A stretch of 64,000 bases of DNA, taken from the NCBI GenBank assembly GCA_049521895.1, contig JBEKOJ010000001.1, positions 482,717-546,716 of the forward strand, in the 5' to 3' direction. The notes under the pieces were generated by a model. That model had not been told where the DNA came from, made no database searches, and was given only the letters and a program-made list of their open reading frames with translations. Below are positions 21,977 through 45,023 of this stretch, piece by piece (position 1 is the first letter of the stretch; each line of letters begins with the position of its first letter). The DNA comes from Candidatus Saccharimonadales bacterium (lineage in GTDB: Bacteria; Patescibacteriota; Saccharimonadia; Saccharimonadales; UBA10212). The translations under genes and the position numbers were made by a program.

Positions 21977-21985
21977 AGACTTGAT

Positions 21986-30009: not shown

Positions 30010-30330
30010 GGAGGCTAAAATACGGTTTTGTCCTGTCTTGCTCGAGACATTTATTTAAAGTCTGCTGTATCGGACTCAGCCTCCGCTATCGCGGAGGTTT
30101 TAACACTTATCATTTTTCATTTGGCATTTATCTCTCTTTGGTCATCTATCATTGCAGCTGCAATCTGGTAAATGTTACCTGGTAAATAAATGTAAATTGT
30201 TAAATGTAAAATGCTAAATCGCTCGCCTTTGGCGGGCGCTTTACCGTTGCGGCACAGTGTTGGCATCTCACCAACTTCCAGCAATCGTTTGTTAATGTTC
30301 CATCATGATAGACCGCCGGCCGCAGGCCGT
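30010..30330 (-). ncRNA. Candidate cobalamin riboswitch / long structured 5' leader
   Basis: The minus strand at 30279..30240 reads GGAAGTTGGTGAGATGCCAACACTGTGCCGCAACGGTAAA. This parallels the conserved cobalamin-riboswitch core GGAA-stem-GUG.GA-stem-CUG..CGCA.CGGUAA. I did not identify a clear B12 box. Confidence 0.45.
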
Positions 30331-30530
30331 CCAGTGTAATAAATACCGCGCCTAAAAATGTCTGGGTTTGACGCGTACCTCTGTTTTCCCATATAATTTA
30401 CCTGCTCTTACCCTTTTTAAATTCTAGGGAAAAGGAGTAGTGCTGGTTCCGTTTTGGCGGAAGCCGAATTTATTTCGGCAGGCACGATGAGGGAAAACCA
30501 TCGGTTGTCCTTCATAAGCGTTAGCGCTAT

Positions 30531-30605
30531 TCCGGAGTAGCTCAATGGTAGAGCAATCGACTGTTAATCGATTGGTTGCCGGTTCGAGTCCGGCCTCCGG
30601 AGCCA
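30531..30605 (+). tRNA. tRNA-Asn (anticodon GUU), CCA encoded
   Basis: Cloverleaf: acceptor TCCGGAG/CTCCGGA, anticodon stem ATCGA/TCGAT with loop CTGTTAA, T-arm GCCGG-TTCGAGT-CCGGC, discriminator G, then CCA. Confidence 0.95.
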
Positions 30606-32171
30606 TTGTGAGCGAACAGCCGAAAAAGCGGCTGTTTTCTCTTTAGAAGAGCTGAAATTGTTGGTTCTAACCTTGTTAAAAGCTCTTTCTAGCTTTGGAT
30701 ACTCATTTCGTATTGGCACGAACCATAAATTTGGCTCAATTGTCAGTTGTTTTTCTTTGAGAATGAAGCTACTACCGAGGGTAGTAAAGATATCCCTCCG
30801 CTCCTGCTTCCCACCTGCTTTAAAGGATTGGCGAGCGTGTGTGGCAAAATCAAAGGTATTTTCGGTTAGTTCTAACCATTTTTCGGCACGCTCTTCTGTA
30901 TCACGCAATTGTTCTTTTAGTCGGTTGATTTCTCCAACGAGCGTCTCACGCTGCTCAATATACTCATCATCGTTTATTAGCTCTCTTAGTCTTAGCTTTG
31001 TGAGTGTGTCTAGTTGCTTCTGCGTAGCAAGCAATGCTTTGGCTTGATTTTCGTGTATCACTGTTCTTTCACTGATTTCTTGGTCATTATTTTCTCTAAG
31101 CACGTCTAAAGCCCAGTCTCGGAACTCTGGGAGAATTGTAATGCTGGCTAGATGTTCGTCAATTTGTTTTTCTAGCTCTGTTTCTGTTACTGAGCCTTTT
31201 TGGGAACAGGGCTTCTTATGGGTGCAGTGATAATAGACGTATTCTCGGGTCTCACCAGTGCTTTTAATATATTTTTGCTTAACTTCTGCCGTTATAGTGC
31301 AGCCACACTCGCCGCAAACAATAGGTCCACGATAGGTCATTTCGTGTTTCTTGGGCCGTGGCTTGCCCTTACGACCTAGTATTTGCTGCACTCTATCATA
31401 TTCAGCTAGGGTTACCATTGGCTTATGGCTGCCCTGATGTAGTTGTCCTAGATACCTAATTTGGCCTGCATAGAAAGGATTAGTAAAAATTCCATACAAA
31501 GCCGAACGAGACAAAGGGCCGCCGCCTGTTTTGCGTGTTTTTCTTAATCTAAACCCTAAATCAAACTCTGCGATATCAAGTATTTCAGGAACAGAGTAAT
31601 TACCTGTTAGCATCAGGTCCCACATTTTTCTTACAATAGGGAAACGCTCAGGGTCAATAATTATAATCTTTGAACCTTTATCTCTGTCGGGAGTATTTAA
31701 ATAGCCCGTTGGGGCCCAGCCTGGCTTCCAGCCCAGCTGTATCTTTTTTTCATTTCCACGTTTTACATCTTTGCTTAATTTGGCCGAGAAATACTGCGAT
31801 TGAGACATTACCATTTGGAGCATCATCATACCCTCTGGCGAGTTATCAAAAGTGTAAGAGCCGAACTTTAAGTCCAAAATCTTGCCATTTCTTATTCTGT
31901 AAGTGATTGAGGCAGCGTCTATTTCATTCCTAGATAAACGGTCAGGGTGCCAAGAGATTATTCCGTGTGCTTCACCCTCATCTATTCTTTTCAGCATCTG
32001 CTCAAAAATCGGCCTGTTGTTTGGTGTAAATGCACTGGCACTCTCAGGCGGTAGCTCAATTATCTCTAAGTCTGAAAATATCTGTCGGGCGTTATCTATT
32101 TGGCTTTGCAGTGAAAGAACCTGACGCTCTTCCTCTTCTGAGGATTTTCTAGTGTAAAGAAAGTATTTCAT
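30564..32171 (-). CDS. Large serine recombinase (integrase)
   Basis: N-terminal resolvase domain YTRKSSEEEE...HPDRLSRN, a recombinase domain, and a Zn ribbon CGECGCTITAEV...YYHCTHKK with a coiled coil. The last 14 codons are antisense to the tRNA. Confidence 0.9.
   Translation of the reverse strand: MKYFLYTRKSSEEEERQVLSLQSQIDNARQIFSDLEIIELPPESASAFTPNNRPIFEQMLKRIDEGEAHGIISWHPDRLSRNEIDAASITYRIRNGKILDLKFGSYTFDNSPEGMMMLQMVMSQSQYFSAKLSKDVKRGNEKKIQLGWKPGWAPTGYLNTPDRDKGSKIIIIDPERFPIVRKMWDLMLTGNYSVPEILDIAEFDLGFRLRKTRKTGGGPLSRSALYGIFTNPFYAGQIRYLGQLHQGSHKPMVTLAEYDRVQQILGRKGKPRPKKHEMTYRGPIVCGECGCTITAEVKQKYIKSTGETREYVYYHCTHKKPCSQKGSVTETELEKQIDEHLASITILPEFRDWALDVLRENNDQEISERTVIHENQAKALLATQKQLDTLTKLRLRELINDDEYIEQRETLVGEINRLKEQLRDTEERAEKWLELTENTFDFATHARQSFKAGGKQERRDIFTTLGSSFILKEKQLTIEPNLWFVPIRNEYPKLERAFNKVRTNNFSSSKEKTAAFSAVRSQWLRRPDSNRQPID
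30579..30604. repeat. attL-like 26-bp direct repeat (tRNA 3' end)
   Basis: CCGGTTCGAGTCCGGCCTCCGGAGCC, identical to 44908-44933. Confidence 0.85.
30616..30640 (+). terminator. Intrinsic terminator after tRNA-Asn
   Basis: Stem ACAGCCG / CGGCTGT, loop AAAAAG, then TTTT. Confidence 0.6.
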
Positions 32172-32758
32172 AGTAATTTTCCGAGGTCAGCTTTATTATA
32201 CGCCCCAGAGGCCATCTCATACAGCTTGTAGAGTCTTAGTTGCTTTTTTGTAAGTCTACCTGCATAAGTTCGGCGTTTGATTGATGCTTGAAGTTCTTCA
32301 ATTTTTTGTTCGGTTTCTAATACTTTGAAAAGACCGCTCCATTTATAGGAACGGTTTTTATTTCTGCTTTCGTAAGTTAGGTCATAACAATGGCGGCAGC
32401 CAAAATGGTCCCCATCTTTGTATAGCTTACGAACTCGCCGTTCGCAGGACCTACCGTTTATAACGAGCGGGCATATAAACCACCATCGCTCACCACCCAG
32501 GTTGCAGGGCGTGGACTCCAACCTGACCTTATAATTAAAAGATTTCTTTTCTCCTGACCATCTGTCCGTCTGTTGATAGCTGAGGCTAAAATACGGAAAA
32601 TCATCAAATATATTTGCTGTAAAACTGACCGAACTTTTACTATCGCTAAACCCCGAAGTCCAGCTTAGTGTTCCGCTCATTATCCCTTTCAAATAGCCTT
32701 GCTGTTTGATGTAGCTAAGGTCAATACTCAACAGGTTGTCAGCTTCTGTTTTGCTCAT
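32168..32758 (-). CDS. Hypothetical Cys-rich (zinc-ribbon-like) protein coupled to the recombinase
   Basis: Contains CPLVINGRSCERR...GCRHCYDLTYESR. Its stop overlaps the recombinase ATG (ATGA). Confidence 0.5.
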   Translation of the reverse strand: MSKTEADNLLSIDLSYIKQQGYLKGIMSGTLSWTSGFSDSKSSVSFTANIFDDFPYFSLSYQQTDRWSGEKKSFNYKVRLESTPCNLGGERWWFICPLVINGRSCERRVRKLYKDGDHFGCRHCYDLTYESRNKNRSYKWSGLFKVLETEQKIEELQASIKRRTYAGRLTKKQLRLYKLYEMASGAYNKADLGKLL

Positions 32759-32823
32759 AGTGTTTCAATAATCTTCCGAAATCATTAGACATTGTTAGCC
32801 TTTTACTCTGTTGGGTTATTGCC

Positions 32824-33357
32824 TTATTTTTGCCCTTTTTCCGAAACGAACCCATTTTTCCTAGCCTCTTGTGCTTTCAAAAGCTCACGAATAGCTTTGA
32901 AGAGGTTACGTTCTATTTCTGTTTCATAACGAAGATAAATACCACCTAAAAGCTCAATGTCTGCTTCCTTAATCTTCGGCTCATAACCCTGATGTATTAT
33001 TTTTACTTCTGAAAGCGGCATTAGGTCCCAGTTGTTAGTCGTCTCGGTTTTTGTTGGGTCATTTATTTTCTTTAACTGTTCAGCTTCTGCGGCAACAACC
33101 CGCTGCAGTCGGACATACCAAATCGCAACTCTTTCAACTAACAGCTCTTCAAGAACAGTCGCTGGTTCATAATCAGTATGAAGCCTTGCCTTTATAAGGC
33201 TCGCTTGCTTTGCTTCTTCACCGCTGAGCAGCTCAGTTAAGATGTTATGCCTTACAGCGTTATACTTTGACTTTTCTTTTCCAGCTTCTGTTTTAACGCC
33301 ACCCTTCTTGCTGTTAATGCGGTTTGCCTCTAGCTGCTTATCGCTTACTTCAGCCAT
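32824..33357 (-). CDS. Hypothetical protein (177 aa)
   Basis: ORF in the island's minus-strand module, with a basic N-terminus QLEANRINSKKGGVKTEAGKEKSKYNAVRHN. Confidence 0.5.
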   Translation of the reverse strand: MAEVSDKQLEANRINSKKGGVKTEAGKEKSKYNAVRHNILTELLSGEEAKQASLIKARLHTDYEPATVLEELLVERVAIWYVRLQRVVAAEAEQLKKINDPTKTETTNNWDLMPLSEVKIIHQGYEPKIKEADIELLGGIYLRYETEIERNLFKAIRELLKAQEARKNGFVSEKGQK

Positions 33358-33841
33358 TTTGCAGTCTCCTCTTTAGCTCTTCTCTTTTTCTTAAAAAATC
33401 TTGATACCCTTTTGATGTATTTCTTTGGTTACTCTTAGTAGTAGCTTTCAGGTTTTGGGCATCAGTGGCAGACAATTCATCGCTTTCAAGTTTGCTGGTT
33501 TCCTGCAAACTGGAGGCAAGGTAATTCTCAATCTTTTGGACATTCAGCTTAAAGTGCCGTTTAGCAGGGATACTTTTCCTAACTACTTCAATTAGGCCAA
33601 GGGATTTTAGCTGCCCAATAACTCTTTCCTGTTGTGAACGGCTTAGGCCCGTTTCTAGCTTCATTTCCGCAATTGTTTTGAAGGACCAGACTTTATCCCT
33701 TCCGAGCCCATTCCAATAAAGAAGCTGGCCCAGTAAGATTGATGACTCAACTGAACCTAGCGAATGGGCCAGTCCAGCACTGTATGCAATAGGCTTCTGC
33801 TGGAACATTTTATAAATCCTTTGCTGGTCCTGCTTGCTCAT
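33350..33841 (-). CDS. Putative winged-helix DNA-binding / replication-organiser-like protein
   Basis: LGQLLYWNG...FKTIAEMKLETGLSRSQQERVIGQLKSLGLIEV. An alternative start at 33808 would remove the overlap with the upstream ORF. Confidence 0.45.
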   Translation of the reverse strand: MSKQDQQRIYKMFQQKPIAYSAGLAHSLGSVESSILLGQLLYWNGLGRDKVWSFKTIAEMKLETGLSRSQQERVIGQLKSLGLIEVVRKSIPAKRHFKLNVQKIENYLASSLQETSKLESDELSATDAQNLKATTKSNQRNTSKGYQDFLRKREELKRRLQNG

Positions 33842-34022
33842 CGTAATTCACATATTCATTAGCCTTAGAAGGCCTATTAAAGGGCTTTGAGACCGCTTTG
33901 ATTAGCTGGACCAGCTGTAATCCCTTTTCCTTTGCTTCATCTTCAGTTAGCTCAACATCAAAATGGTCTTTATATAATGCCTGGAATTTTTGCACCTGCT
34001 GGAAAGAGAGTTGCATTTCCAT
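33810..34022 (-). CDS. Hypothetical small protein (70 aa)
   Basis: ORF coupled to both neighbours on the same strand. Confidence 0.4.
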   Translation of the reverse strand: MEMQLSFQQVQKFQALYKDHFDVELTEDEAKEKGLQLVQLIKAVSKPFNRPSKANEYVNYDEQAGPAKDL

Positions 34023-34270
34023 TACACCCCCGAATAAATCCTTGTTTTAAGATGCTTCATAGCATCAAAGTAGGCCTTTGGATTGACCTTCAACTTGTCT
34101 GACCAATAATTATCAACCGCTGTTTTTAGTGCAGGGGTCGTTTCAAACAAGAAGGTAGCTTTGCCAGCTGAAGATTTTTCAATACCTATAACTAAAAAGC
34201 CCTCTGTAACCAGAGCCGAGGATAGGGCTAGGTCAAAGGTTCTAAATTCATAGGAATTGTAATTACTCAT
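34022..34270 (-). CDS. Small hypothetical protein (DUF5659-like by pattern)
   Basis: 82 aa: FDLALSSALVTEGFLVIGIEK...ATFLFETTPALKTAVDNYWSDKLKVNPKAYFDAMKHLKTRIY. Confidence 0.45.
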   Translation of the reverse strand: MSNYNSYEFRTFDLALSSALVTEGFLVIGIEKSSAGKATFLFETTPALKTAVDNYWSDKLKVNPKAYFDAMKHLKTRIYSGV

Positions 34271-34325
34271 CTTAATGATGAGCTTAACCCTATAACCCTA
34301 CCTACGTATAAGGCATCAATTGAGC

Positions 34326-35129
34326 CTAATTGATGCCTACAAGCTTTTTATAATTCCGTATGATTGTTGAGATTTCTGAGTATGTATAAACCTTGTCTTC
34401 GTCTTCAAAAGGGTATTTTTCATCAAATATCGTCGCAATTTCGCTAAGGGTCTTTCCTTCAATTGTTTTGAGCCTGTATGCTTCTGCTCCTTTTTCAAGA
34501 ACATCATAATCGGCTGGCTGATGTTTTTGACGGCTCATATAGCTCAGTCGCTTTTGGTGGAATTTTACTAACGGCCACGCTGCCTTTACCTCATCAAGCG
34601 TAGTATCTTCATCTATAACAATATGAATTTCCTCGTCGTCTTCTCCTGGCTGGTGGGGCACGCCCATTCGGACACCAATTTTATTTCTTATATTTTTGGG
34701 GTTGTTAAGAAGAATATATCCCCTCAAACCATCCTTCCACGAGGGTCCAAGTCTATACTTTATTCTGAGCTGTTTAATATCGTTATAAAAAGCATTTAGC
34801 GGTGCTATGAGATTGATTTCTGCCTGCCTATCTACAAATTTTGTGTAGGGGATTTTTTTAGCAAGTGCGTCTTCTTGAAGTTGCTTGAGCTCTTGTCTAA
34901 ATGTCGGCCAAACTTTGTCGTGCCACTTTTCGGTCTCTTCCCCTATCCAGTGCCACCAAGCTTCCTGCTTACCAGAATTAATATCTTTAAAACCGTTCGC
35001 AGGGATTTTGTAACGTTTTCGGATAGCAGCTATATCTGCTTGAAAATCTGGGCGAGAAGCTAAGATGAGAGACTGCTGTTCTCTTTTGGCTTTACTCTTT
35101 AGAAAAACTTTATCTTCTGAACCCTTCAT
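34326..35129 (-). CDS. Hypothetical protein (267 aa)
   Basis: ORF only. It is the first gene downstream of the XRE regulator. Confidence 0.5.
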   Translation of the reverse strand: MKGSEDKVFLKSKAKREQQSLILASRPDFQADIAAIRKRYKIPANGFKDINSGKQEAWWHWIGEETEKWHDKVWPTFRQELKQLQEDALAKKIPYTKFVDRQAEINLIAPLNAFYNDIKQLRIKYRLGPSWKDGLRGYILLNNPKNIRNKIGVRMGVPHQPGEDDEEIHIVIDEDTTLDEVKAAWPLVKFHQKRLSYMSRQKHQPADYDVLEKGAEAYRLKTIEGKTLSEIATIFDEKYPFEDEDKVYTYSEISTIIRNYKKLVGIN

Positions 35130-35180
35130 AGTAATAGTAATCCTGCTTCAATTATCTACAGGATTGGGCTTAAAGACTAG

Positions 35181-35402
35181 TTAGAGCGGTTTGAACAGGT
35201 CTTTGAGACTGACCTTCAAAGCCTTGGCGATTTTATAAACATTCCCCACGCTAGGGTTGCGTTTGCCTTGTTCAATAAATCCGATATATGTTCTGTGTAA
35301 ATCAACAAGGTCGGCCAATTCCTCTTGGGTTAAGCCGCTTTTTCGTCTTAATTCGGCAACTCTTGCACCGAAATCCTTTATAAATTTTGTTTCTGTCGCC
35401 AC
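35181..35402 (-). CDS. XRE-family helix-turn-helix transcriptional regulator
   Basis: LRRKSGLTQEELADLVDLHRTYIGFIEQGKRNPSVGNVYKIAKAL, with a GTG start. Confidence 0.85.
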   Translation of the reverse strand: MATETKFIKDFGARVAELRRKSGLTQEELADLVDLHRTYIGFIEQGKRNPSVGNVYKIAKALKVSLKDLFKPL

Positions 35403-35406
35403 ACAT

Positions 35407-35467
35407 ACAGTTTGTCGCTAAAAAGTGTTTGCCACCACAGACAGATTGTCGCATAATAACAGACAAT
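35407..35467. promoter_or_regulatory. Divergent promoter/operator region with repeated ACAGNTTGTCGC boxes
   Basis: ACAGTTTGTCGC (35407-35418), ACAGATTGTCGC (35441-35452; GACAGATTGTC is a palindrome), and ACAGACAAT (35459-35467). Confidence 0.45.
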
Positions 35468-35478
35468 AAGGAGTTTTT

Positions 35479-35976
35479 ATGAAAATTAGCAAGGCTTGGT
35501 TCGTGAAACACAAAGTTCTTTCAGTAGTATTGGCTCTTATTGTATTAGGGATAATCGGTGCTGCCGCAGGTGGTAGCAAACCCAACAGCACGGTCAATAG
35601 CAGCACAACAGCAAACACGGCTATTAAAACCCAGCCAGCAGCCAAAGCCCAAACTCAGCAACCTGCTGTGCCAGCCGAATATAAATCTGCTCTCAACCAG
35701 GCTACTTCTTATGCCAACGACCAGCATCTGTCTAAACAAGGAGTATATGACCAGCTAGTTTCACAATACGGAGGTAAGTTCTCAGCAGCCGCTGCACAGT
35801 ATGCAATAGACAATGTGAAGGCTGATTGGAACGCAAACGCTCTTGCACAGGCAAAGGATTACCAAAGTCAGCAGAGCCTATCGCCATCAGCAATTCACGA
35901 CCAATTAACCTCTTCATATGGCGGAAAATTTACGCAGGCTGAGGCAGACTACGCCATTGCCCACCTGAACGATTAG
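35479..35976 (+). CDS. Ltp-like surface (lipo)protein with two Ltp-type repeats (superinfection-exclusion family)
   Basis: An N-terminal TM helix followed by two repeats: YKSALNQATSYANDQHLSKQGVYDQLVSQYGGKFSAAAAQYAIDNV and NALAQAKDYQSQQSLSPSAIHDQLTSSYGGKFTQAEADYAIAHL. Confidence 0.7.
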   Translation: MKISKAWFVKHKVLSVVLALIVLGIIGAAAGGSKPNSTVNSSTTANTAIKTQPAAKAQTQQPAVPAEYKSALNQATSYANDQHLSKQGVYDQLVSQYGGKFSAAAAQYAIDNVKADWNANALAQAKDYQSQQSLSPSAIHDQLTSSYGGKFTQAEADYAIAHLND

Positions 35977-36002
35977 TGAGTTCATCGCAACAGAAATGGA
36001 TT

Positions 36003-36030
36003 GAGGCAGGAAACCCTGCCTCGTTTATTA
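36003..36030 (+). terminator. Intrinsic terminator after the Ltp-like gene
   Basis: Stem GAGGCAGG / CCTGCCTC, loop AAAC, then GTTTATTAT. Confidence 0.65.
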
Positions 36031-36078
36031 TCAAAACGAACAATAAAGAATTAGAATTAAAGTTAAGGTTCTCCGAAG

Positions 36079-39258: not shown

Positions 39259-39914
39259 TGAGTGATTTAACCGATAATTTACCTGACCCAGAATTAGCTT
39301 TCAAGCTAATTGAAGCCAACTTTATATACAAAGATAACATTCGCAATCAGGACTCAGCAGTAGCCAAGAAATTAAAGAGATATTGTGCTTTCTTATATTT
39401 TTACTTCTCTCAAGCAGAAGAAAAATCTAGAATGTTTGATGCACTTCGCCCAAGACTAGATATCGTAACGGTGATGAAGGACGATGATGCACGTATGACT
39501 GTTTGGTGGTGGGCTTATTTAGATGCCATCGTCCATACGAGCAATTTATATGACAAGCCAACTGGCGGTAACGAACCAGCCTCTTTGCCCTTCTTAAACA
39601 GTAAGTTACCTATGTGGGGTAAAGAGCTAGGTGTGCCAAAAGTGCCTGAGTTGGCCGACATAAAAAACGATGAAAGTCTTAAAAACCTACTTGGCTTGCG
39701 GGATAAGCTAATAATCCATATTGAGCCAAAATCATATTTCAAAGTTATGTTTGACCTTAGAGATGTGCCTAACTTCTTTGACCATCTAATAAACGAGGTT
39801 GCGAAACCTTACCTTGAAGAAGTCTATGACACCTTTTTTATAGGAAAGCACGACTTTACTCCAAAAACTGAAAACATAGATGCAATTCTAAAATTAAAGC
39901 TGAAGATTGAGTAA
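39258..39914 (+). CDS. Hypothetical protein (218 aa) translationally coupled to the helicase-nuclease; possible HEPN-like Rx5H motif
   Basis: Its ATG overlaps the upstream TGA (TGATG). RDKLIIH at aa148-154 fits the Rx4-6H spacing. I recognised no other motif. Confidence 0.55.
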   Translation: MSDLTDNLPDPELAFKLIEANFIYKDNIRNQDSAVAKKLKRYCAFLYFYFSQAEEKSRMFDALRPRLDIVTVMKDDDARMTVWWWAYLDAIVHTSNLYDKPTGGNEPASLPFLNSKLPMWGKELGVPKVPELADIKNDESLKNLLGLRDKLIIHIEPKSYFKVMFDLRDVPNFFDHLINEVAKPYLEEVYDTFFIGKHDFTPKTENIDAILKLKLKIE

Positions 39915-40161
39915 CGTTATGTATCAAAAACTGCTAATTTTTCTTAAAGAAATTGACTACTGGAACAAATACCCAAGCAGGTGGTATCTTAAAGATAGCC
40001 TTAAAACAGCAAAAAATGAGGAAGAAAAGATTGAGGTGCTATTGCGAGACTCCTTAATCTTGCAACATCTATACCCTAATAATTGGCTAGATGTCATACA
40101 TAAAGCCGCAGATGACCCAGTGCGTTTTGTGAGAGAAAATATGCCAGAGATGCTTAGATAA
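39907..40161 (+). CDS. Hypothetical small protein (80-84 aa), third gene of the operon
   Basis: A TTG at 39907 overlaps the upstream gene, or ATG 39919 lies 5 nt after its stop. Confidence 0.5.
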   Translation: MSNVMYQKLLIFLKEIDYWNKYPSRWYLKDSLKTAKNEEEKIEVLLRDSLILQHLYPNNWLDVIHKAADDPVRFVRENMPEMLR

Positions 40162-40174
40162 TGGACACTTGCTT

Positions 40175-41110
40175 ATGAAAACAAAATCAAACAGACCGAT
40201 ATCTAAAATTGGCATTGGTAGTTATGGAGTTGGCGGACGTGGGCATAGGGATATGGAGATTACCGAAAAAGACGAAGACCAGAAGTATATTGACGCATTG
40301 GTCTACACGCTTCAAAAAGGCATCAATTTTACCGAAATTGCTTTGGGGTATGGGCACGGTCAATCACTGGCTATCTTCAAACAAGCATTTGATAAAAGCT
40401 CGGTAGTAAGAGAGGATTTCTTTTTTACTCATTCACTTTATCCAAGGGACCTGCCAACGATTGAAACAGCTAATGAAGATATTGCCAGCTTCTACAAAAT
40501 TATGGAAACAGATTACGCCGACAGCACACTAATAACCCAATCAATGATTTTAAAATTTGGGACGGATAAGGTTTATCCTCTACTACATAAACTGCTTGAA
40601 AACGGTAAAACTCGTTATGTGAGCTTGTCTAATGCAAACCCTGATTGGATTAAGGCATTTAAAAAAGAATTTGGTGATGGCTTTGTTGCTCACGAAGGCC
40701 ATTTTAGCTTTGAGGTTAGAGCATTGCAGGACAAGGGTGTGTTTAAAGTTTGTGATGAACTGGGCGTAAAGAACATTATTTGGCGACCTCTTCGTCGTAA
40801 TAAAACTGTGCAACATAACTGGGAGCTTCTATCAGAATTGGCTAATAAATATCAAAAGACACAGAACCAAATCGTCCTAAACTGGATGTGCAGTCTGGGC
40901 TACAATCCGATGGTTTTTTCTACTAGCCAAAAACATATTGACGAAAATATAGCTGCTACGGATTTTGAGATGTCGGCGGTGGATTATATGCGAATGACGG
41001 ATTTTCGTCCGCAGAATTACAACCCCCCAAAGGTTGATTGGGAAGGCCTTAGTATTGATGATGATATAGTTGTCCTGGCTAATGACTTTGAGGAGCACTT
41101 GCTAAAATAG
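40175..41110 (+). CDS. Aldo/keto reductase family oxidoreductase
   Basis: IGIGSYGVGG...INFTEIALGYGHGQS...RYVSLSNANPDWI. I take ATG 40175 as the start rather than the track's TTG 40169. Confidence 0.8.
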   Translation: MKTKSNRPISKIGIGSYGVGGRGHRDMEITEKDEDQKYIDALVYTLQKGINFTEIALGYGHGQSLAIFKQAFDKSSVVREDFFFTHSLYPRDLPTIETANEDIASFYKIMETDYADSTLITQSMILKFGTDKVYPLLHKLLENGKTRYVSLSNANPDWIKAFKKEFGDGFVAHEGHFSFEVRALQDKGVFKVCDELGVKNIIWRPLRRNKTVQHNWELLSELANKYQKTQNQIVLNWMCSLGYNPMVFSTSQKHIDENIAATDFEMSAVDYMRMTDFRPQNYNPPKVDWEGLSIDDDIVVLANDFEEHLLK

Positions 41111-41123
41111 TTATGATTTGCGA

Positions 41124-41660
41124 ATGAGCTTATATTTCATTACAGGCAATAAGGGCAAGTTAGCCGAAGCCCAAGAGATACTACCAGAGATTGAGGGACT
41201 GGACATTGACCTGCCCGAAATACAAGGAGTTGATGCCCACAAGATTATTGAAGCTAAGCTACAAGCTGCACTTGAACATCAAGAGGGTGAATTTATTGTT
41301 GAAGACACCTCTCTTTATTACGAAGGGCTAAATGGATTGCCTGGGCCACTAGTAAAGTGGTTTTTAGAGACCGTTGGACCTGATGGCTTATATAAATTTG
41401 CGAAGGGCTTTAATGCATACAAAGCTACCGCAAAGACCATTGTTGGTTACGCCAAAGACCCAGACAATATTCAATTCTTTGAAGGCAATATTGACGGTGA
41501 GGTAGTAGAACCAAGAGGCGACCAGGGCTTTGGGTTTGACCCCATCTTTCAACCCAATGGTTATAATCAAACTTTTGCCGAAATGACTCTAGAAGAAAAA
41601 AACAATCTAAGTATGAGAAAAATAGCGTTCAACAAACTGCGAGAGTATCTAGGGAGATAA
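41124..41660 (+). CDS. rdgB: Non-canonical purine NTP pyrophosphatase (RdgB/HAM1, ITPase family)
   Basis: YFITGNKGKLAEAQEIL...EDTSLYYEGLNGLPGPLVKWF...GFGFDPIFQPNGYNQTFAEM. Confidence 0.85.
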   Translation: MSLYFITGNKGKLAEAQEILPEIEGLDIDLPEIQGVDAHKIIEAKLQAALEHQEGEFIVEDTSLYYEGLNGLPGPLVKWFLETVGPDGLYKFAKGFNAYKATAKTIVGYAKDPDNIQFFEGNIDGEVVEPRGDQGFGFDPIFQPNGYNQTFAEMTLEEKNNLSMRKIAFNKLREYLGR

Positions 41661-42124
41661 TAGTTCTAACTTCCATCACTACGGGGAGCCATTCGACTCG
41701 GCTCAATAAATTGAGCCTCGCTCATGGCCTTCGGCCGAGTCGAATGTCCTGAGCGAAGTCGAAGGACTGATAATTTATGGTCTATCTCTATATTCTCCGC
41801 AATGTTCGCAATCGACTTTACATTGGGCATGCTGAGAACTTAGACCAGTGTATATCCGATCACAAGACTAATCATGGCGCCAAATTTATAAAAGACCATG
41901 GCAATTTTAACCTCGTGTATACAGAGAAATACTCCTCTCGTGCTGAAGCTATGAAGCGCGAAAAACAACTGAAGGGCTGGACGCGAGCAAAAAAAGAGGC
42001 ATTAATCGCTAATGACCTAGCTCTGCTAAAGAAACTCTAGGAAGCGCTGTCCGGCCTCTCTTCGAGCCTGAGCGATGAGGCTCAGGCCTCAGAGCCGAAT
42101 GGCCGGAGCCACAAAGTTAGAACT
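41661..42124. mobile_element. GIY-YIG mini-cassette nested inside a GTTCTAAC-type repeat unit
   Basis: The left end TAGTTCTAACTTCCATCACTACGGGGAGCCAT and right end AGTTAGAACT together match the solo 42-bp unit at 42669-42710. GGAGCCA is duplicated at both junctions, and internal 11-13-bp inverted repeats are present (CATTCGACTCGGC / GCCGAGTCGAATG). Confidence 0.55.
41777..42040 (+). CDS. GIY-YIG nuclease-domain protein (87 aa, UPF0213-like)
   Basis: MVYLYILRNVRNRLYIGHAENLDQCISDHK...REKQLKGWTRAKKEALI. Confidence 0.85.
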   Translation: MVYLYILRNVRNRLYIGHAENLDQCISDHKTNHGAKFIKDHGNFNLVYTEKYSSRAEAMKREKQLKGWTRAKKEALIANDLALLKKL

Positions 42125-42140
42125 TTGCTATGATGACAAC

Positions 42141-42671
42141 ATGATTAAACGCTGGAAAGAGTTGAGCCGAGAGGAAGTTCTTAGGAAATACTCTTGGCTA
42201 ATTGAAAAGAGGGTTTATAAATTACCAAGTGGCGAAGTGGCCGATTACTACATTCGAGCCGTAAAATCGGGGGCTTGTGTTCTAGCAGTTACTGAAGGCA
42301 ATCAAATTGTTACGGTTAAGCAATATCGCCCTGGACCTGACCGAATTTACAATGAGCTACCTGGTGGAGTCGTAGAAGATGATGAAGATCCTAAATTGGC
42401 GGGTATACGTGAACTAAAGGAAGAAACTGGTTATTTTGGGGATGTGGTTTGGCGGGGTCAATGGCAGAACGATGCATATACTCAGCAAGAAAGAAATATC
42501 ATTGTCGCAACCAACTGCAAAAAGGTTAGCGAACCAAAACTGGATAACACAGAGTTTGCGGAAGTTGAACTTCTTAATATCAAGGATTTCATTACAAAAG
42601 CAAGAAATGGAGAGCTTACGGATACAGCTGGGGCTATGCTGGGATTAGATCATCTTGGGCTGCTAAAATAG
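42141..42671 (+). CDS. NUDIX hydrolase
   Basis: Nudix box GGVVEDDEDPKLAGIRELKEETGY. I set the start at ATG 42141 because the upstream part of the track ORF is repeat-encoded. Confidence 0.8.
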   Translation: MIKRWKELSREEVLRKYSWLIEKRVYKLPSGEVADYYIRAVKSGACVLAVTEGNQIVTVKQYRPGPDRIYNELPGGVVEDDEDPKLAGIRELKEETGYFGDVVWRGQWQNDAYTQQERNIIVATNCKKVSEPKLDNTEFAEVELLNIKDFITKARNGELTDTAGAMLGLDHLGLLK

Positions 42672-42710
42672 TCCTAACTTCCTCCACTACAGGGAGCCAT
42701 AGTTAGAACC
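42669..42710. repeat. Solo GTTCTAAC-type unit with 9-bp terminal inverted repeats
   Basis: TAGTCCTAACTTCCTCCACTACAGGGAGCCATAGTTAGAACC. Its TAG is the Nudix stop codon. Confidence 0.7.
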
Positions 42711-42719
42711 AAAATCTAT

Positions 42720-42740
42720 AGAGGTCAATCGCCTCTTTTA
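42720..42740 (+). terminator. Weak candidate terminator
   Basis: AGAGG-TCAATCG-CCTCT followed by TTTTATT. Confidence 0.4.
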
Positions 42741-42778
42741 TTCATTTGAGGGGGTATTTCTTGGTATAAAATAATCTT

Positions 42779-43030
42779 ATGACCACAAAAGAGATTGCCG
42801 AAGGTGTGGTGCACAAAGTGCCGGCGGATTTACGTAAAGCGTTGATATCTGATGAATCTGCACAAGAGCGGTGGGAAGACCTCACGCCACTGGCGCGCAA
42901 TGAATGGATTTGCTGGACAGTCTCCACCAAAAAACCGGAGACGAGAAAAAATCATATCGAGAGGACAATCACAGAGCTTTTGGAAGGCAAACGCCGGCCT
43001 TGTTGTTGGGCCGGCTGCATCCATCGTTGA
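42779..43030 (+). CDS. YdeI/OmpD-associated family small protein
   Basis: VPADLRKALISDESAQERWEDLTPLARNEWICWTVSTKKPETRKNHIERTITEL. Confidence 0.6.
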   Translation: MTTKEIAEGVVHKVPADLRKALISDESAQERWEDLTPLARNEWICWTVSTKKPETRKNHIERTITELLEGKRRPCCWAGCIHR

Positions 43031-43040
43031 AATAAGCAGC

Positions 43041-43059
43041 GGTTCTAATTTCCTCCGCC
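43041..43059. repeat. Variant GTTCTAAC-type repeat (GGTTCTAATTTCCTCCGCC)
   Basis: Located 11 nt after the YdeI-like stop and aligns with the TAGTTCTAACTTCCTCCAC units. Confidence 0.45.
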
Positions 43060-43123
43060 AGCCGGCGGAACTACGCCGGGGCCACGATTTACAAATACCA
43101 CAATTAGTGTTATTATTTGCTTT

Positions 43124-43427
43124 ATGAGCGAGGCATATCGACATATAGTTCTTTTTGGGCTTAAGCCTGAAACCAGTGACACAGACCCGAGCCAAAGCCG
43201 TTAACCTGTTACAGGAGCTTGGGCAAAGTGCAGTAGGTGTAAGAGAGTGGGTTGTGACCGAATCATTAGATAGCCGCAAGGGTGATGTCATTGTTGAAAA
43301 TGGGCTTTTTGAAAACCAAGCCGCTTTTGAGGAATTTAGAGCTTCCGAGGCACATCTTGAAGCTGGAAAATTTATGCAAGAAATTGCCGACTGGTTAGTT
43401 GGCGATTACCTAGAACATCAAAAGTAG
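43124..43427 (+). pseudogene. Dabb (stress-responsive alpha/beta-barrel) domain gene with an apparent frameshift
   Basis: The frame from ATG 43124 gives MSEAYRHIVLFGLKPETSDTDPSQSR* (a Dabb N-terminus). The rest of the domain (AKAVNLLQELG...FEEFRASEAHLEAGKFM) is in the +1 frame (track ORF 43155..43427). Confidence 0.6.
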
Positions 43428-43453
43428 TTCTAACTTCCTCCACTACGGGGAGC
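43425..43453. repeat. GTTCTAAC-type unit, left half only
   Basis: TAGTTCTAACTTCCTCCACTACGGGGAGC. Its TAG is the stop of the Dabb ORF. Confidence 0.65.
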
Positions 43454-43528
43454 AAGGGCCACTTTGGGTAAGATTTAAGAGCGCCCCAAAAGGCCCGGTG
43501 CAATGGTTCTTAGGGTATTGATGAGCAT

Positions 43529-44827
43529 CTAGAGCAAAGTAACTTGCTGAGCTGGAGCGAAATTTTTCCAATCCTTGTCAGAGAATATATGCACCGTACC
43601 GAATTCACCGTCATAACCAGGTTCAATTTGAAGCTGGTGAGTCCGGACACGCTTAATGGCTTCAGCGATTATGGGGCTGCTGGCAGCTTTGATAGAATCC
43701 AGATCCGCATCAAGCAGTACATTCAATTCGTCACTAAAGGTCTGCAGAAGCTTATCATATTGAGCGGTCACTTTTTTGGTGCCCGGTTTTACACGAAGAG
43801 CCTCGGCAATTATTTCTTCCAGGGGAACCAAAGACCAATAATCTGGCGCGCCCGAGGGCTTTTGGCCAGCAGGCCGGTCAGCTAGTGTTTCAACCCGCGA
43901 TAGTACGCCCACGGTAACCGGGCGGCCGCATACCGGGCAAAGGCCTTTGTGCTGTTTAGTCTGCTGCGGGTCCCAGCGGATACGGTGGGCGCTATGCCCA
44001 TCATAATGGTACTTGCCTTCCTCGGGAAAGAATTCAATGGTGCCAGCAAGTCTGGTGCGCGGCGTTGCAAGCTGTTGCTTTGCCCTGGCCGGTGCCCCAT
44101 ATTGTAGGGCGGCGGCCATGCCGTTGTAGCTAAGTTCACCGTCAAACTTGGTGGCTTCGCGGGCTAGTTTGGTAGCCGAGTGAGCATCGGAGCTAGACAT
44201 TAAAGCTACTTGATCCAGCTTGCTCAGTCGCCAGTTCATTGGCGGATCAGACGACAAGCCTGTTTCTATAGCCAAAATCTTGGGGGTTAGTTCTTCAAAA
44301 CACTCTTCGAGCGAATCAAATCCTGACTGCGAGCCTAGAACCCCAAACCATGGCGTCCAGGCATGAGCAGGTATTACTAAAGCTTCGGGATGAGCGATAA
44401 AGGCTAGCTCAGCAACTTGCTTAACGCTCAGGCCTACTATTGGCCGGCCGTCGCTGGCTAGTTTGGCTCCGTGGGTTGCCAGCAAGCTACTAAACCCTGA
44501 GGCGGCTTCAAGAGAAGGGACTAAAACCAGGGTATGAACACGACGGCCTCTGCCACCCTGCTGGTAAATGCTGGAGATCTCCACGCTCAAGACAAAACGG
44601 GTAGTGTTGCCGTCGGAAGCATCCTTTAACATCAATAAGCCCGGTTCTGGGGCAGGAGTTAGTAACTGTCTTATTTCGGAGAACCAGATAGGGTGTGTAA
44701 AATCGCCGGTTCCTAAAACGGTCAACCCTTTCTTGCGGGCAAATTCGTCAAGTATGGGTAAGGTTAGATAGCGCGAAGTAGCACGGGCAAAGCGCGAATG
44801 GACATGAAAGTCGGCGTAGTAAACCAC
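43529..44827 (-). CDS. PHP-domain protein of the endonuclease Q (TIGR00375-like) family
   Basis: N-terminus VYYADFHVHSRFARATS, a central PHP region, and a Zn-finger-like CPVCGRPVTVGVLSRV. GTG start. Its GC looks host-like by eye. Confidence 0.65.
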   Translation of the reverse strand: MVYYADFHVHSRFARATSRYLTLPILDEFARKKGLTVLGTGDFTHPIWFSEIRQLLTPAPEPGLLMLKDASDGNTTRFVLSVEISSIYQQGGRGRRVHTLVLVPSLEAASGFSSLLATHGAKLASDGRPIVGLSVKQVAELAFIAHPEALVIPAHAWTPWFGVLGSQSGFDSLEECFEELTPKILAIETGLSSDPPMNWRLSKLDQVALMSSSDAHSATKLAREATKFDGELSYNGMAAALQYGAPARAKQQLATPRTRLAGTIEFFPEEGKYHYDGHSAHRIRWDPQQTKQHKGLCPVCGRPVTVGVLSRVETLADRPAGQKPSGAPDYWSLVPLEEIIAEALRVKPGTKKVTAQYDKLLQTFSDELNVLLDADLDSIKAASSPIIAEAIKRVRTHQLQIEPGYDGEFGTVHIFSDKDWKNFAPAQQVTLL

Positions 44828-44907
44828 ATTTTTATTTTAGACCTTTTAAATGGAATTAAGTTTACTGAGCTCCTGCAAAGTACCAATGGACTGCTCTCGC
44901 CACTACT

Positions 44908-44933
44908 CCGGTTCGAGTCCGGCCTCCGGAGCC
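44908..44933. repeat. attR-like 26-bp direct repeat (orphan tRNA-Asn 3' end)
   Basis: CCGGTTCGAGTCCGGCCTCCGGAGCC, identical to 30579-30604. No complete tRNA can be folded here. Confidence 0.85.
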
Positions 44934-44944
44934 GTGAGTACGTG

Positions 44945-44966
44945 AATACTTAACAAGTTAAGTATT
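44945..44966. repeat. 22-bp palindrome family copy (perfect: AATACTTAAC-AA-GTTAAGTATT)
   Basis: Located 12 nt beyond the attR-like repeat. Confidence 0.8.
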
Positions 44967-45023
44967 TTTACGATCTTAGGTGTTATACTGAATGATGATA
45001 CCCAAAAATACGGGGTGTGATAA

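Follow-up and report, generated by a model that had tools for sequence, protein, structure and literature searches.

The 14.3-kb block downstream of the tRNA-Asn gene in the analyzed window, a 64-kb stretch of a Saccharimonadales genome (candidate phyla radiation), is indeed an insertion, though one made up of stacked units and not the single element bounded by a 26-bp repeat that had originally been predicted. We consider it likely to be an accretion island at the tRNA-Asn 3' end, in which Unit 1, an element with its own large serine recombinase (LSR), is followed by stacked units 2-6, the mechanism being deduced. The anatomy of the island, the architecture common to the LSR family, the junctions in related loci and a strain polymorphism were observed directly. 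Coordinates of the features are listed in Table 1.

Table 1. Features of the island at tRNA-Asn, in window coordinates.
Feature	Position	Strand	Evidence or remarks
tRNA-Asn(GUU), putative left half-site of attB	30531-30605	+	ARAGORN; Rfam tRNA, 75 bits
Large serine recombinase, 535 aa	30564-32171	-	Pfam: Resolvase, Recombinase, Zn_ribbon_recom
attL core CCGGAGCCA	30597-30605	+	Core comparison across loci
Element-side arm P', TTGTGAGCGAAC + hairpin + T-run	30606-30646	+	Terminator-like site 30614-30637
Conserved LSR core module	32168-35402	-	Pfam, PHROG (phrog_9773, 1.7e-22)
p196	32168-32758	-	
p177	32824-33357	-	
Replication initiator, O/DnaD-like	33350-33841	-	
70-aa ORF	33810-34022	-	
DUF5659	34022-34270	-	
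p267	34326-35129	-	
XRE	35181-35402	-	
Cargo of the LSR element	35479-41660	+	Pfam; PADLOC
Ltp lipoprotein	35479-35976	+	
Mokosh-like SF1 helicase fused to PLD nuclease	36079-39258	+	PADLOC MkoA 8.5e-64, MkoC 2.3e-40
p218	39258-39914	+	
p84	39907-40161	+	
Aldo-keto reductase (AKR)	40169-41110	+	
Ham1/ITPase	41118-41660	+	
attR of the LSR element, arm GTTCTAACTTCCATCACTAC + core GGGGAGCCA	41663-41691	+	PWM score 26.1
GIY-YIG unit (gene 41777-42040)	41692-42111	+	GGAGCCA on both sides, without 20-nt arm
NUDIX cassette (gene 42099/42075-42671)	42112-42699	+	Ends: arm 42671-42690 + core AGGGAGCCA
OmdA cassette (gene 42779-43030)	42700-43084	+	Degenerate arm (from 43042), 13-nt insertion, core GGGGCCA
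Dabb cassette	43085-43455	+	Ends: arm 43427-43446 + core GGGGAGCAA
EndoQ segment (gene 43529-44827, minus strand)	43456-44934	.	Host-like composition; absent from L154
26-nt copy of tRNA T-arm + acceptor (B-type arm)	44908-44933	+	Preceded by CCACTAC+T, then host flank
Host hairpin ATACTTAACAAGTTAAGTAT + T-run	44946-44970	+	Read from sequence

The gene content had been predicted correctly. The tRNA-Asn(GTT) gene, the sole tRNA gene in the window (ARAGORN and Rfam), adjoins the LSR (Pfam), and the eight minus-strand ORFs said to run from XRE to the recombinase are present, with overlaps of 1-8 nt and 32 nt. The Ltp-like gene was found; the helicase-nuclease operon contains an AAA_11/AAA_12 helicase fused to PLDc_2; AKR, Ham1, GIY-YIG, NUDIX and Dabb genes come next (Pfam); and the presumed EndoQ-like gene encodes a full-length EndoQ homolog (PDB 5zb8, E = 6e-46). 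No unknown protein of the block matched a phage structural PHROG, in agreement with the original view of a non-phage, non-conjugative island integrated at tRNA-Asn with a large serine recombinase.

A compositional break, proposed earlier as a check, is real for positions 30606-41690, with GC of 0.407 versus 0.486 and 0.472 in the host flanks and a tetranucleotide distance of 2.77 versus no more than 0.96 for host chunks of 11 kb. In composition the EndoQ segment resembles the host, as had been guessed by eye (GC 0.516; distance 2.0 versus a mean of 1.94 for 1.5-kb host chunks), and the island is composite. The nearest relative with both flanks in synteny, the species-level L154, lacks the whole island, including the EndoQ segment; in this locus and in L156 and L157 about 3.1 kb of other content lies between the DUF4430 and aminotransferase genes. 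The element is also missing at the same locus in L098. Among the strain-level contigs (23 + 23 read) all carry the element, and neither an attP circle nor an empty site was seen. The possibility that close relatives share the block with no break thus holds for strain-level presence; as to the break, which is clear, and the species-level relative, it does not.

The LSR has the A118 (4kis) and SPbeta (9dxh) integrases as PDB matches, and R8 and S10 are conserved in the family alignment. Its last 14 codons lie inside the tRNA-Asn gene, running from a tryptophan whose TGG is the antisense of CCA to a stop in the anticodon loop, and the tail WLRRPDSNRQPID is translated tRNA; an in-frame tail W-L/R-R-x-x-D-S-N-x-R-P is kept across the same alignment. 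A genome scan revealed at least 580 relatives, of which nearly all come from Patescibacteria; IMG/VR contains hardly any members of the family (five matches). In 62 of the 72 loci with room, the LSR 3' end overlaps a tRNA 3' end in antisense, the partners being His (14), Asn (13), Gln (11), Ser (9), Trp (6), Asp (3) and others. This is apparently a large, undescribed LSR family integrating at the very 3' end of tRNA genes.

At the far end of the elements of this family lies a conserved arm, GTTCTAAC-N4-TCCACNAC, behind which the 3' end of the target tRNA is repeated over 9 nt. Arm and core together matched 27 times in sense versus 4 times in the antisense control over 62 loci, the search being limited to the 10 kb available per locus and the arm being found in only 18-20 of them; across nine tRNA types, the core fits the tRNA abutting the LSR of the same locus. 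In the arm, 29 nt separate the G of GTTC from the A of CCA, a spacing first seen in core-only matches, versus 24 nt between G53 of the T-loop and A76 in the tRNA. This agrees with the 5-bp offset of LSR sites, in which the distal motif is about 5 bp nearer the center in attB than in attP (PMC11722253). In a set of matches preselected for at most one mismatch in the last 7 nt, differences between attL and attR cores are confined to positions -9, -8, -7 and -2, -1, and we infer a crossover within -6 to -3, a stretch made up of the final nucleotides of the acceptor, the discriminator and the first C. Against this, the right half-sites lack the mirror-image GTTAGAAC that a textbook LSR site should have: in P', a conserved ACGAAC follows CCA by only 7-12 nt, and the B' flank is just A-rich terminator sequence. 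By its sequence, P' looks like an intrinsic terminator of the tRNA gene, lying antisense within the final codons of the LSR; its hairpin has a mean z of -3.1 in 57 family loci (z < -2 in 65%), with differing stem sequences. The CCA is encoded in the tRNA-Asn gene, whose terminal nucleotides probably come from the element.

Searching the window for LSR att sites, as had been suggested, placed its first such arm at the end of Unit 1 (30606-41691, 11.1 kb, GC 0.41); the remaining PWM matches in the 64 kb fall in the island, plus one elsewhere. Unit 1 shares only GGAGCCA(TT), about 7-9 nt, with tRNA-Asn. The long tRNA-end duplication originally linked to the LSR by implication gives way to the family site, a conserved 20-nt arm and a core of about 9 nt, and the oddity that it posed is gone, because a short shared core is what LSR chemistry predicts. 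Homologs of p196 (16 loci), p177, DUF5659 (29 loci) and XRE are found upstream of family LSRs. In L159 (LSR 73% identical) the tRNA-Asn, P' and arm are identical or nearly so to those of the window, and its 10.65-kb element ends with an identical arm abutting a host terminator; no tRNA repeat longer than 10 nt was found there. L158 (LSR 79% identical, same host flank) has an 8.3-kb LSR element followed by more arm-bounded cassettes, and in L010 (70% identical) the 5.7-kb element is the eight-gene core alone.

The rest of the island, 41692-44934, is an accreted array of recombinase-less units. The 3' end of the GIY-YIG unit, GCGCT-GTCCGGCCTC...GGAGCCA, mimics that of tRNA-Asn, and in L110 and L112 the same unit lies behind a different cassette that directly adjoins tRNA-Asn. 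OmdA cassettes, 60-80% identical at the protein level, stand behind arms in six other loci (L097, L098, L109, L124, L128 and L143). The Dabb cassette has a promoter-like site (43088-43116) and a frameshifted gene (43124.. / 43155-43427). The arm occurs in 55 metagenome stretches, about 20 of them with the arm 0.27-5.5 kb downstream of tRNA-Asn and no LSR in the locus; L121 has six tandem sites with His-type cores, and tandem P-O-P' junctions were found in L053/L072, L015, L082 and L086. Because most cassettes lack a conserved left arm, their independent LSR-mediated mobility is unproven. Tandem stacking implies that occupied sites (attL or attR) serve as targets. Canonical LSRs avoid such sites, which counts against accretion.

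The exact repeat of the tRNA end, CCGGTTCGAGTCCGGCCTCCGGAGCC, was borne out in exactly two copies, 30579-30604 and 44908-44933, with a chance expectation of about 5e-7 (our own arithmetic, ~2e9 position pairs x 4^-26). It had been taken for the last 26 nt of the tRNA; it does come from the 3' end, without the terminal A of the encoded CCA, and the right copy reads CCG at the CCA position. Since nothing tRNA-like precedes the right copy, it is a 3' fragment and not the remnant of a second tRNA-Asn gene, the alternative raised with the original prediction. The 26-mer is the outer boundary of the island, not a footprint of Unit 1. Together with the host flank it resembles attB and looks like a secondary attB-like site that remains in use within the population: L005 matches the window at 100% identity over 7.8 + 2.7 kb to either side, the sole difference being an extra 2.1-kb cassette at the 26-mer, flanked by CCGGAGCC and with its own arm GTTCTGAATAAGTCCACTAG, and it is this insert in otherwise identical sequence that points to attB-like activity. 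The hairpin beyond it is probably the original tRNA terminator (B' flank); it also flanks the arm in L154 and L091. The origin of a 26-nt B-type arm directly behind a degenerate CCACTAC sits uneasily with accretion.

The mechanism we propose is as follows. The core of Unit 1 would serve integration, regulation and replication (LSR, p196, p177, O/DnaD-like initiator, DUF5659, XRE), with the Ltp-type lipoprotein and the Mokosh-like helicase-PLD as putative defense cargo and AKR and Ham1 as further cargo. The tRNA T-arm and acceptor would form the left half of attB, in which the universal T-loop G53TTC would be the distal motif for the zinc-ribbon domain, about 20 bp from the crossover; in the left half of attP, GTTCTAAC-N4-TCCACNAC, this GTTC would lie 5 bp farther away. 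Strand exchange would occur at the last acceptor nucleotide or the discriminator, so that only a core of about 7-12 nt is shared. The tRNA would stay intact, its CCA and a terminator concealed in the final LSR codons being brought by the element, and the C-terminal tail of the LSR would be swapped on integration (535 aa integrated, ~542 aa predicted for the circle). Units 2-6, devoid of a recombinase, are stacked at this core. A left end resembling a promoter, a single gene and the family arm make up each of the NUDIX, OmdA and Dabb cassettes; the GIY-YIG unit is an insert of another kind, and the EndoQ segment lies outermost. These units may have been mobilized by LSRs in trans or may be distal remnants of earlier LSR elements. 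The LSR is presumably the enzyme acting on the arm, and the cassettes are presumably mobile.

That the cassettes are instead immobile, left over as the far ends of successive LSR elements that lost their cores by deletion, a graveyard rather than an integron-like system, is rather unlikely in our view, although conservation is confined to the right ends (the arm), the Dabb gene carries a frameshift, the OmdA arm has decayed, and cargo adjoins the arm in LSR elements (L159 and the window). Their left junctions are precise, directly after CCA and often with a promoter-like TTGACA-N17-TATTAT, the same single-gene units recur across arrays, and L005 represents a clean gain or loss of the 2.1-kb unit in identical sequence. 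The arm could also belong to another, trans-encoded recombinase (tyrosine or integron-like) and be associated with the LSR incidentally, given that most arm-bearing metagenome loci have no LSR and that some sites look like imperfect hairpins, GTYCTAAC...GTTAGAAC, reminiscent of attC. However, GTTAGAAC is found in only a few cassettes, and neither the island nor the L121 array has a tyrosine recombinase. Moreover, the arms lie at the far ends of LSR elements in the right orientation with the core of the LSR's tRNA (27 versus 4 in the control), abut LSR 3' ends directly in tandem arrays, and show the 5-bp GTTC offset in line with LSR site logic; this alternative is improbable.

We find it very improbable that one 14.3-kb element was integrated by its LSR with the 26-bp repeat as attL/attR duplication, even though an exact 26-nt repeat brackets a low-GC block with the LSR at the tRNA end and the whole block is missing from L154. 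Within 10 kb, repeats of the tRNA end never exceed 14 nt in any family member, and in the closest relatives, L159 and L158, the element stops at the 20-nt arm and its 7-nt core; the block itself has four arms inside it and a heterogeneous composition, and its GIY-YIG and OmdA units are known from other contexts. The fixation of the element in all strain-level contigs would suit a domesticated, immobile host LSR that is always beside a tRNA, the arms being REP-like or terminator repeats, but this is hardly credible in view of the many different tRNA partners, the absence of the element from the same locus in L098 and L154, its foreign base composition, the variable cargo of close LSRs and the confinement of the arm to the island plus one other place in 64 kb.

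The LSR resembles the A118/LI, SPbeta SprA, Bxb1, phiC31 and TP901-1 integrases in its resolvase catalytic domain (with the conserved Ser), recombinase and zinc-ribbon domains, and it shares with phage and ICE large serine integrases a short attP/attB identity and a distal motif about 5 bp nearer the center in attB than in attP. Unlike them, it targets the extreme 3' end of tRNA genes (more than ten tRNA types family-wide) instead of a protein-coding gene, and the universal T-loop appears to take the role of the distal motif in attB; attP and the end of the integrase gene overlap, so that the ORF reads into the tRNA, the elements stack in tandem, and the hosts are Patescibacteria, with hardly any of the family in IMG/VR. 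SCCmec/Ccr and CIME-type accretion is similar in having serine recombinases at the 3' end of a conserved gene and tandem arrays that include recombinase-less units with the same short repeats, for which mobilization in trans is possible; there, however, the target is rlmH or another protein-coding gene, not a tRNA, the enzymes are paired CcrA/B and the units are larger.

As portrayed in the parts of their description drawn on here, most Prochlorococcus tycheposons rely on tyrosine recombinases, with partial tRNAs of about 40 nt left behind, and a minority carry LSRs; like our island, they are anchored at tRNAs, lack capsid and conjugation genes, combine an integrase with a small replication module and cargo, and form islands with partial-tRNA remnants as new integrations push older elements outward (bioRxiv 10.1101/2020.12.28.424599). 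They differ in phylum and hallmark genes, and a conserved 20-nt arm and single-gene cassettes do not figure in those parts of the description. As in integrons, the cassettes mostly hold a single gene, each ends in a conserved recombination site and there is one anchor site. Unlike integrons, the island has no IntI tyrosine recombinase, attI or Pc; its cassettes have their own promoter-like left ends, its site is a 20-nt arm with a tRNA-matching core instead of a folded attC, and its anchor is the 3' end of a tRNA gene.

The genomic island extends for 14.3 kb from a tRNA-Asn(GTT) gene, the only tRNA gene of the window (see table). The 26-mer CCGGTTCGAGTCCGGCCTCCGGAGCC occurs exactly at 30579-30604, within this gene, and at 44908-44933, with no further copy in the window; by our own arithmetic, the chance expectation for such 26-mers in 64 kb is about 5e-7. 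The tRNA search, repeat search and domain assignments thus bear out the original prediction of a tRNA-Asn(GUU) with an exact 26-nt repeat and an adjoining large serine recombinase (LSR). The right copy consists of a 3' fragment only, the sequence upstream of it being unrelated to the tRNA body, and so it is not a remnant of a second tRNA gene, which the prediction had considered.

Features located between and around the two copies of the 26-mer (window positions; arm, conserved far-end motif with its weight-matrix score)
Feature	Position	Strand	Details
tRNA-Asn(GTT)	30531-30605	+	
LSR	30564-32171	-	535 aa; Resolvase, Recombinase and Zn_ribbon_recom domains
Seven more coupled ORFs beyond LSR		-	ending at XRE regulator
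Ltp lipoprotein			
SF1 helicase fused to PLD nuclease	36079-39258		1059 aa
Two ORFs of no recognised family, then aldo-keto reductase and Ham1			
Small GIY-YIG protein, NUDIX, OmdA and Dabb genes			
Arm site	41663		score 26.1
GIY-YIG unit	41692-42111		GGAGCCA on both sides
NUDIX cassette	42112-42699		arm at end
Arm site	42671		score 27.2
OmdA cassette	42700-43084		arm at end
Arm site	43042		score 20.5; 13-nt insertion
Dabb cassette, frameshifted	43085-43455		arm at end
Arm site	43427		score 30.4
EndoQ homologue	43529-44827	-	432 aa

The predicted compositional break is clear at 30606-41690, where GC content is 0.407 compared to 0.486 and 0.472 in the flanks, and the tetranucleotide distance to the host is 2.77 (at most 0.96 for 11-kb host chunks); the EndoQ segment is host-like, as anticipated. 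A local GC dip to 0.375 was also seen at 21001-22000, well outside the island. The right-most gene is indeed EndoQ-like, with full-length similarity to solved Endonuclease Q structures (5zb8 and 7k30, E about 1e-45; 6e-46 for 5zb8; query residues 1-414 against chain residues 1-382). Mokosh defence systems combine an RNA-helicase-type ATPase with a PLD nuclease, type II being a single MkoC-like protein, and the helicase-PLD ORF matches as a Mokosh-like candidate defence protein (PADLOC MkoA 8.5e-64, MkoC 2.3e-40; Pfam AAA_11/AAA_12 and PLDc_2). One protein of otherwise no known family matches an O/DnaD-like replication initiator (phrog_9773, 1.7e-22). No capsid, portal, terminase or tail gene was found among PHROG and Pfam matches of the island ORFs, and no relaxase, type IV coupling protein or T4SS gene among their Pfam matches, in agreement with the reported lack of phage structural and conjugation genes. 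The island is neither a prophage, an ICE nor an integron.

By its domains and conserved residues the recombinase is a bona fide LSR, with an N-terminal catalytic domain (PF00239, 1.1e-16), a C-terminal part assigned to PF07508 and PF13408 with invariant cysteines C286, C289, C316 and C322, and residues 204-447 aligning to the C-terminal domain of A118 integrase (4kis). R8, S10 and further R/E/Q positions are invariant among 26 homologues. The last 14 codons of the gene, WLRRPDSNRQPID, are the antisense translation of the tRNA, the stop codon lying in the anticodon loop and the TGG codon being the complement of the tRNA CCA. The tail W-L/R-R-x-x-D-S-N-x-R-P is conserved in the 26 homologues (48-86% identity), keeping the frame of the protein body with no indels; for annotation, this means that the recurrent "WLRGxDSNxRP" tails of CPR recombinases are translated tRNA. 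A scan of one genome per GTDB species revealed at least 580 relatives, nearly all in Patescibacteria, the nearest named ones being from Candidatus Saccharimonadales; only five were found among 2.9 million IMG/VR contigs. Sequence beyond the gene is available at 72 loci, and in 62 of these the 3' end of an antisense tRNA overlaps with, or lies directly against, that of the LSR (His 14, Asn 13, Gln 11, Ser 9, Trp 6, Asp 3 and six others once each). Homologues of p196, p177, DUF5659 and XRE, all from the eight-gene module of the LSR, accompany it at many loci, and p196, the conserved overlapping upstream gene, is a candidate for the recombination directionality factor (RDF) that LSRs need for excision.

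Throughout the family, the tRNA CCA is directly followed by a conserved NNGTGNACGAA(C/T), then by a hairpin and T-run (30614-30637 in the window). The hairpin has a mean z of -3.1 over 57 loci and its stem sequences differ, so the element appears to supply the tRNA terminator within the integrase's last codons. Moreover, several cores at the far-end junction (attR) read CAA, CTA or CCG whereas the tRNA now reads CCA, and therefore the element seems to donate the CCA. Several contigs (L006, starting with ctccggagccgtgag at position 1, L145, L146 and L148) begin or end exactly in the core or tRNA junction, which is compatible with branching of the assembly graph at the att site, i.e., population heterogeneity there.

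The first far-end arm with its core, GTTCTAACTTCCATCACTAC+GGGGAGCCA, lies at 41663-41691 just after the Ham1 stop codon, which places the LSR element at 30606-41691, sharing just GGAGCCA(TT) with the tRNA. In L159 (LSR 73% identical) the element-side arm after the CCA is near-identical and the far-end arm identical, 10.65 kb from tRNA-Asn and abutting a host terminator, and tRNA repeats there do not exceed 10 nt. In L158 (79% identical, with the left host flank of the window), more arm-bounded cassettes lie behind an LSR element of 8.3 kb, and the entire 5.7-kb element of L010 (70% identical) consists of the eight-gene core. At the level of sequence comparison, these loci confirm that the LSR element is bounded at the arm. 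In the composite model, excision would yield the circle junction GTTCTAACTTCCATCACTACGGGGAGCCA|TTGTGAGCGAACAGCCG (41691|30606) and the repaired site tRNA...CCGGAGCCA|TTCGACTCGGCTC (30605|41692); the LSR of the predicted circle has 542 aa ending in WLPVVMEVRTIISLDTLAVC, compared to 535 aa when integrated. When the terminal 45 nt of each tRNA were aligned locally to up to 10 kb upstream of the LSR, no tRNA-end repeat exceeded 14 nt in 60 loci, which rules out long repeats as a family trait. Thus, the original interpretation stands as far as an accessory composite LSR island at tRNA-Asn is concerned, and fails in taking the 26-bp tRNA duplication for the footprint of the LSR itself: the puzzle is resolved into a canonical-looking short-core LSR site at 41663-41691 and an older outer boundary at the 26-mer.

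Recurrences of the tRNA terminal 8-mer carry GTTCTAAC-N4-TCCACNAC just before them. A relaxed scan (start GT[TC][CG], at most one mismatch in the last 7 nt, fixed 29-nt frame from G of GTTC to A of CCA) gave 27 matches in the expected orientation and four in the antisense control; the frame had been noticed in core-only matches before it was used in the scan. At some 40 of the LSR loci, up to 10 kb of upstream sequence gave no arm. The core agrees with the tRNA adjoining that particular LSR (Asn, Ser, Lys, Leu, Trp, Asp, Gln, His and Tyr). The distance from GTTC to CCA is 29 nt in the arm and 24 nt in the tRNA (G53TTC to A76), hence the motif lies 5 bp further out in the arm. The attP and attB sites of LSRs have in common a short core with a 2-bp crossover. 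In LSR half-sites, the distal motif is about 5 bp closer to the centre in attB than in attP (PMC11722253), and the left half-sites described here appear to fit this logic. Among matches preselected for few mismatches, cores at the tRNA-side junction (attL) and attR vary solely at -9, -8, -7 and at -2, -1 (A of CCA being -1). With -6 to -3 invariant, strand exchange would fall on the last acceptor nucleotides, the discriminator or the first C, which is consistent with half-sites of 25 bp (P) and 20 bp (B). A symmetric site centred at -9/-8 is ruled out, as several loci have attL and attR cores that disagree at -8/-7, and no mirror-image motif was seen in the right half-sites. The arm is not a known RNA either: an Rfam search at E <= 1 over 30000-46000 gave the tRNA alone.

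The weight matrix was built from 24 arms, and host-sequence shuffles never reach a score of 17.5. A solitary arm-like 20-mer (GTTCTAACGGGATCCATTAC, score 17.6) at 12596-12624 (+) is followed by AGAGGTATT, which is not a CCA-type core; situated in an intergenic gap far from any tRNA, it may be a relic site.

The remainder of the island, 41692-44934, is an array of recombinase-less units. The GIY-YIG unit occurs in L110 and L112 behind a different 266-nt cassette placed directly after tRNA-Asn, and so 41691|41692 is a true junction. The Dabb unit has a promoter match (10/12) 4 nt past its junction; its gene is probably a decaying cassette gene, with the N-terminus MSEAYRHIVLFGLKPE read from 43124 in one frame and the remainder in the 43155-43427 frame. 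An arm scan of metagenomes yielded 55 stretches, in which the core behind the arm shows the same kind of variation as tRNA 3' ends (GGGGAGCCA, CCGGAGCCA, GCTGTACCA, GTGACCCCA and others). In about 20 of them the arm lies 0.27-5.5 kb downstream of a same-strand tRNA-Asn and the locus has no LSR. OmdA cassettes (60-80% protein identity) were found behind arms at six other loci, and L121 has six tandem sites with His-type cores, spaced 0.5-1.6 kb, with single genes (peptidase S51, two HAD hydrolases, DUF3800) and no recombinase. Arms abutting an LSR 3' end (P-O-P' junctions) were found in L053 (in tandem with L072, 22 kb away on one contig), L015, L082 and L086, and stacking is therefore common. 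The contigs L082 and L086, labelled Abditibacteriaceae / Abditibacterium, and thus not as Patescibacteria, carry family LSRs with the arm directly at the gene 3' end, pointing to a wider host range or else to binning errors.

A conserved non-coding segment (GGTTCGG..CGCGCAGAAGCTTGCTTCGAGCAYGGYTGAGCGGAGAAGG..GCCGCT) occupies 110-150 nt just downstream of tRNA-Asn in L091, L093, L098, L102 and L144, and is also found in L112 and at window positions 42041-42111; it has no Rfam match, and its end replicates 14-18 nt of the tRNA-Asn 3' terminus. The GIY-YIG unit has the same 3' end, GCGCT-GTCCGGCCTC..GGAGCCA, so the segment looks like a second kind of insert mimicking the tRNA 3' end, possibly a non-autonomous form of the GIY-YIG unit. 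A group I intron is ruled out for both, as there is no Rfam intron match; those reported for Patescibacteria tRNA-Asn lie at position 35/36 rather than the 3' end (PMC13011429). Homology of the right end of the island (44830-44907) to this segment family was unsupported by alignment.

We infer that the LSR acts on the arm and that the cassettes are mobile. A Patescibacteria-wide cassette system, in which one LSR family inserts its own 5-12-kb elements and mobilises arm-tagged recombinase-less cassettes in trans, is a tentative reading to which we give less than an even chance. Under such a reading, insertion would use the universal tRNA T-loop and a core of about 9 nt co-varying with the target and would switch the integrase's own C-terminus, and promoter-bearing single-gene cassettes, marked by the 20-nt arm and without a recombinase, would form integron-like arrays at the 3' ends of many tRNA genes in ultra-small genomes.

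The right 26-mer is preceded by CCACTAC+T, a degenerate arm end, and followed by host flank GTGAGTACG...ATACTTAACAAGTTAAGTAT-TTTTT, the same terminator hairpin as next to the arm in the syntenic locus L154. Since its T-loop GTTC is at the B-type distance, the 26-mer together with its flank resembles an attB in form. Contig L005 matches the window at 100% identity over 7,788 and 2,683 nt and carries a 2.1-kb insert (GC 0.41, two genes) exactly at the 26-mer. This insert is flanked by CCGGAGCC, with A at -1 on the left and the host G on the right, and ends in its own arm GTTCTGAATAAGTCCACTAG; it is a clean site-specific gain or loss inside one population. The B-type arm at the outer edge could derive from an early integration, possibly through another integrase, that crossed over 5' of the T-arm, from excision of an L005-type unit regenerating B-O-B', or from an element arm with captured tRNA sequence.

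A protein that NCBI assigns to a Candidatus Saccharimonadales MAG matches the flanking aminotransferase with 100% identity. All strain-level metagenome contigs with the exact flanking proteins also carry the island, and no empty site was found among 46 strain-level contigs. In the related loci L154, L156 and L157, whose aminotransferase is 76% identical, the two flanks are conserved (Na/H exchanger, DUF6580 and DUF4430 on one side; aminotransferase, p358, DUF1761, MFS, LexA and GtrA on the other) and the island is missing; the roughly 3.1 kb between them contain a tRNA-Asn in inverted orientation, an HNH gene, another gene of 704 aa and an arm-like TCCACTAG-CGGGAGCCA. The left flank and tRNA-Asn are also present in L098, followed there by other cassettes and no LSR element. 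Therefore, the whole 14.3 kb, including EndoQ, is accessory. Loci L150-153 with P0123 orthologues have a different upstream context and were uninformative. In L154 (2858-5900; likewise in L156 and L157), the tRNA-Asn runs in inverted orientation with respect to its flanking genes, with inverted GGAGCC+GTG and a palindromic terminator on its other side, which suggests site-specific inversion at the hotspot.

The DUF4430-DUF6580 operon is preceded, immediately left of the tRNA, by a sub-threshold cobalamin-riboswitch match at 30218-30335 (-; 19.8 bits, E = 0.18), and an AdoCbl match of 46 bits (gathering score 50) occupies the equivalent place in L098 (9347-9471); a divergent B12 riboswitch is likely. 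A small gene at 54313-54684, within a glycosyltransferase cluster, has 23S_rRNA_IVP and weak bAvd Pfam matches.

Serine integrases are usually taught to use protein-coding or intergenic sites, tRNA genes being left to tyrosine integrases. Here, tRNA 3' ends are the systematic target of a large LSR family, which numbers hundreds of members among species-representative genomes. Genome sequences directly reveal the architecture of its sites as a conserved arm, a target-covarying core and a 5-bp motif offset, the attB motif being the universal T-loop, which provides a simple rationale for one family hopping among tRNA species and offers dozens of natural attP/attB pairs for genome engineering. It also points to a main route of gene flux, including defence genes, house-cleaning hydrolases and single-gene cassettes, in Patescibacteria with their tiny genomes and few recognised mobile elements. 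A full-text literature search of incomplete coverage gave no account of this LSR family, of tRNA-targeting LSRs or of cassette arrays in Patescibacteria; given this coverage, it is weak evidence of novelty. The putative Patescibacteria-wide tRNA-3'-end LSR family with arm-tagged cassette arrays merits experimental follow-up.

Compared to characterised serine integrases, the system differs in its target (tRNA 3' ends), in the apparent distal attB motif (the T-loop), in an attP overlapping the integrase stop region, and in tandem stacking with arm-bearing recombinase-less cassettes. An integron is ruled out: no tyrosine recombinase (in integrons, intI next to attI and Pc) was found in the island or in the L121 array, the inverted GTTAGAAC partner is inconsistent (two of the four window sites), and promoters are present. 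Integron attC cassettes are promoterless with R''-L''...L'-R' imperfect palindromes, whereas the cassette left ends here have promoter-like hexamers. SCC/CIME-type accretion is also close conceptually. The conceptually nearest system is the tycheposon of Prochlorococcus (bioRxiv 10.1101/2020.12.28.424599), tRNA-anchored, with integrase, replication and cargo genes, accretion islands and a minority carrying LSRs. The tRNA target, integrase, replication module, cargo and tandem accretion islands of tycheposons are all found here, the resemblance being functional only, in another phylum and with an LSR as integrase.
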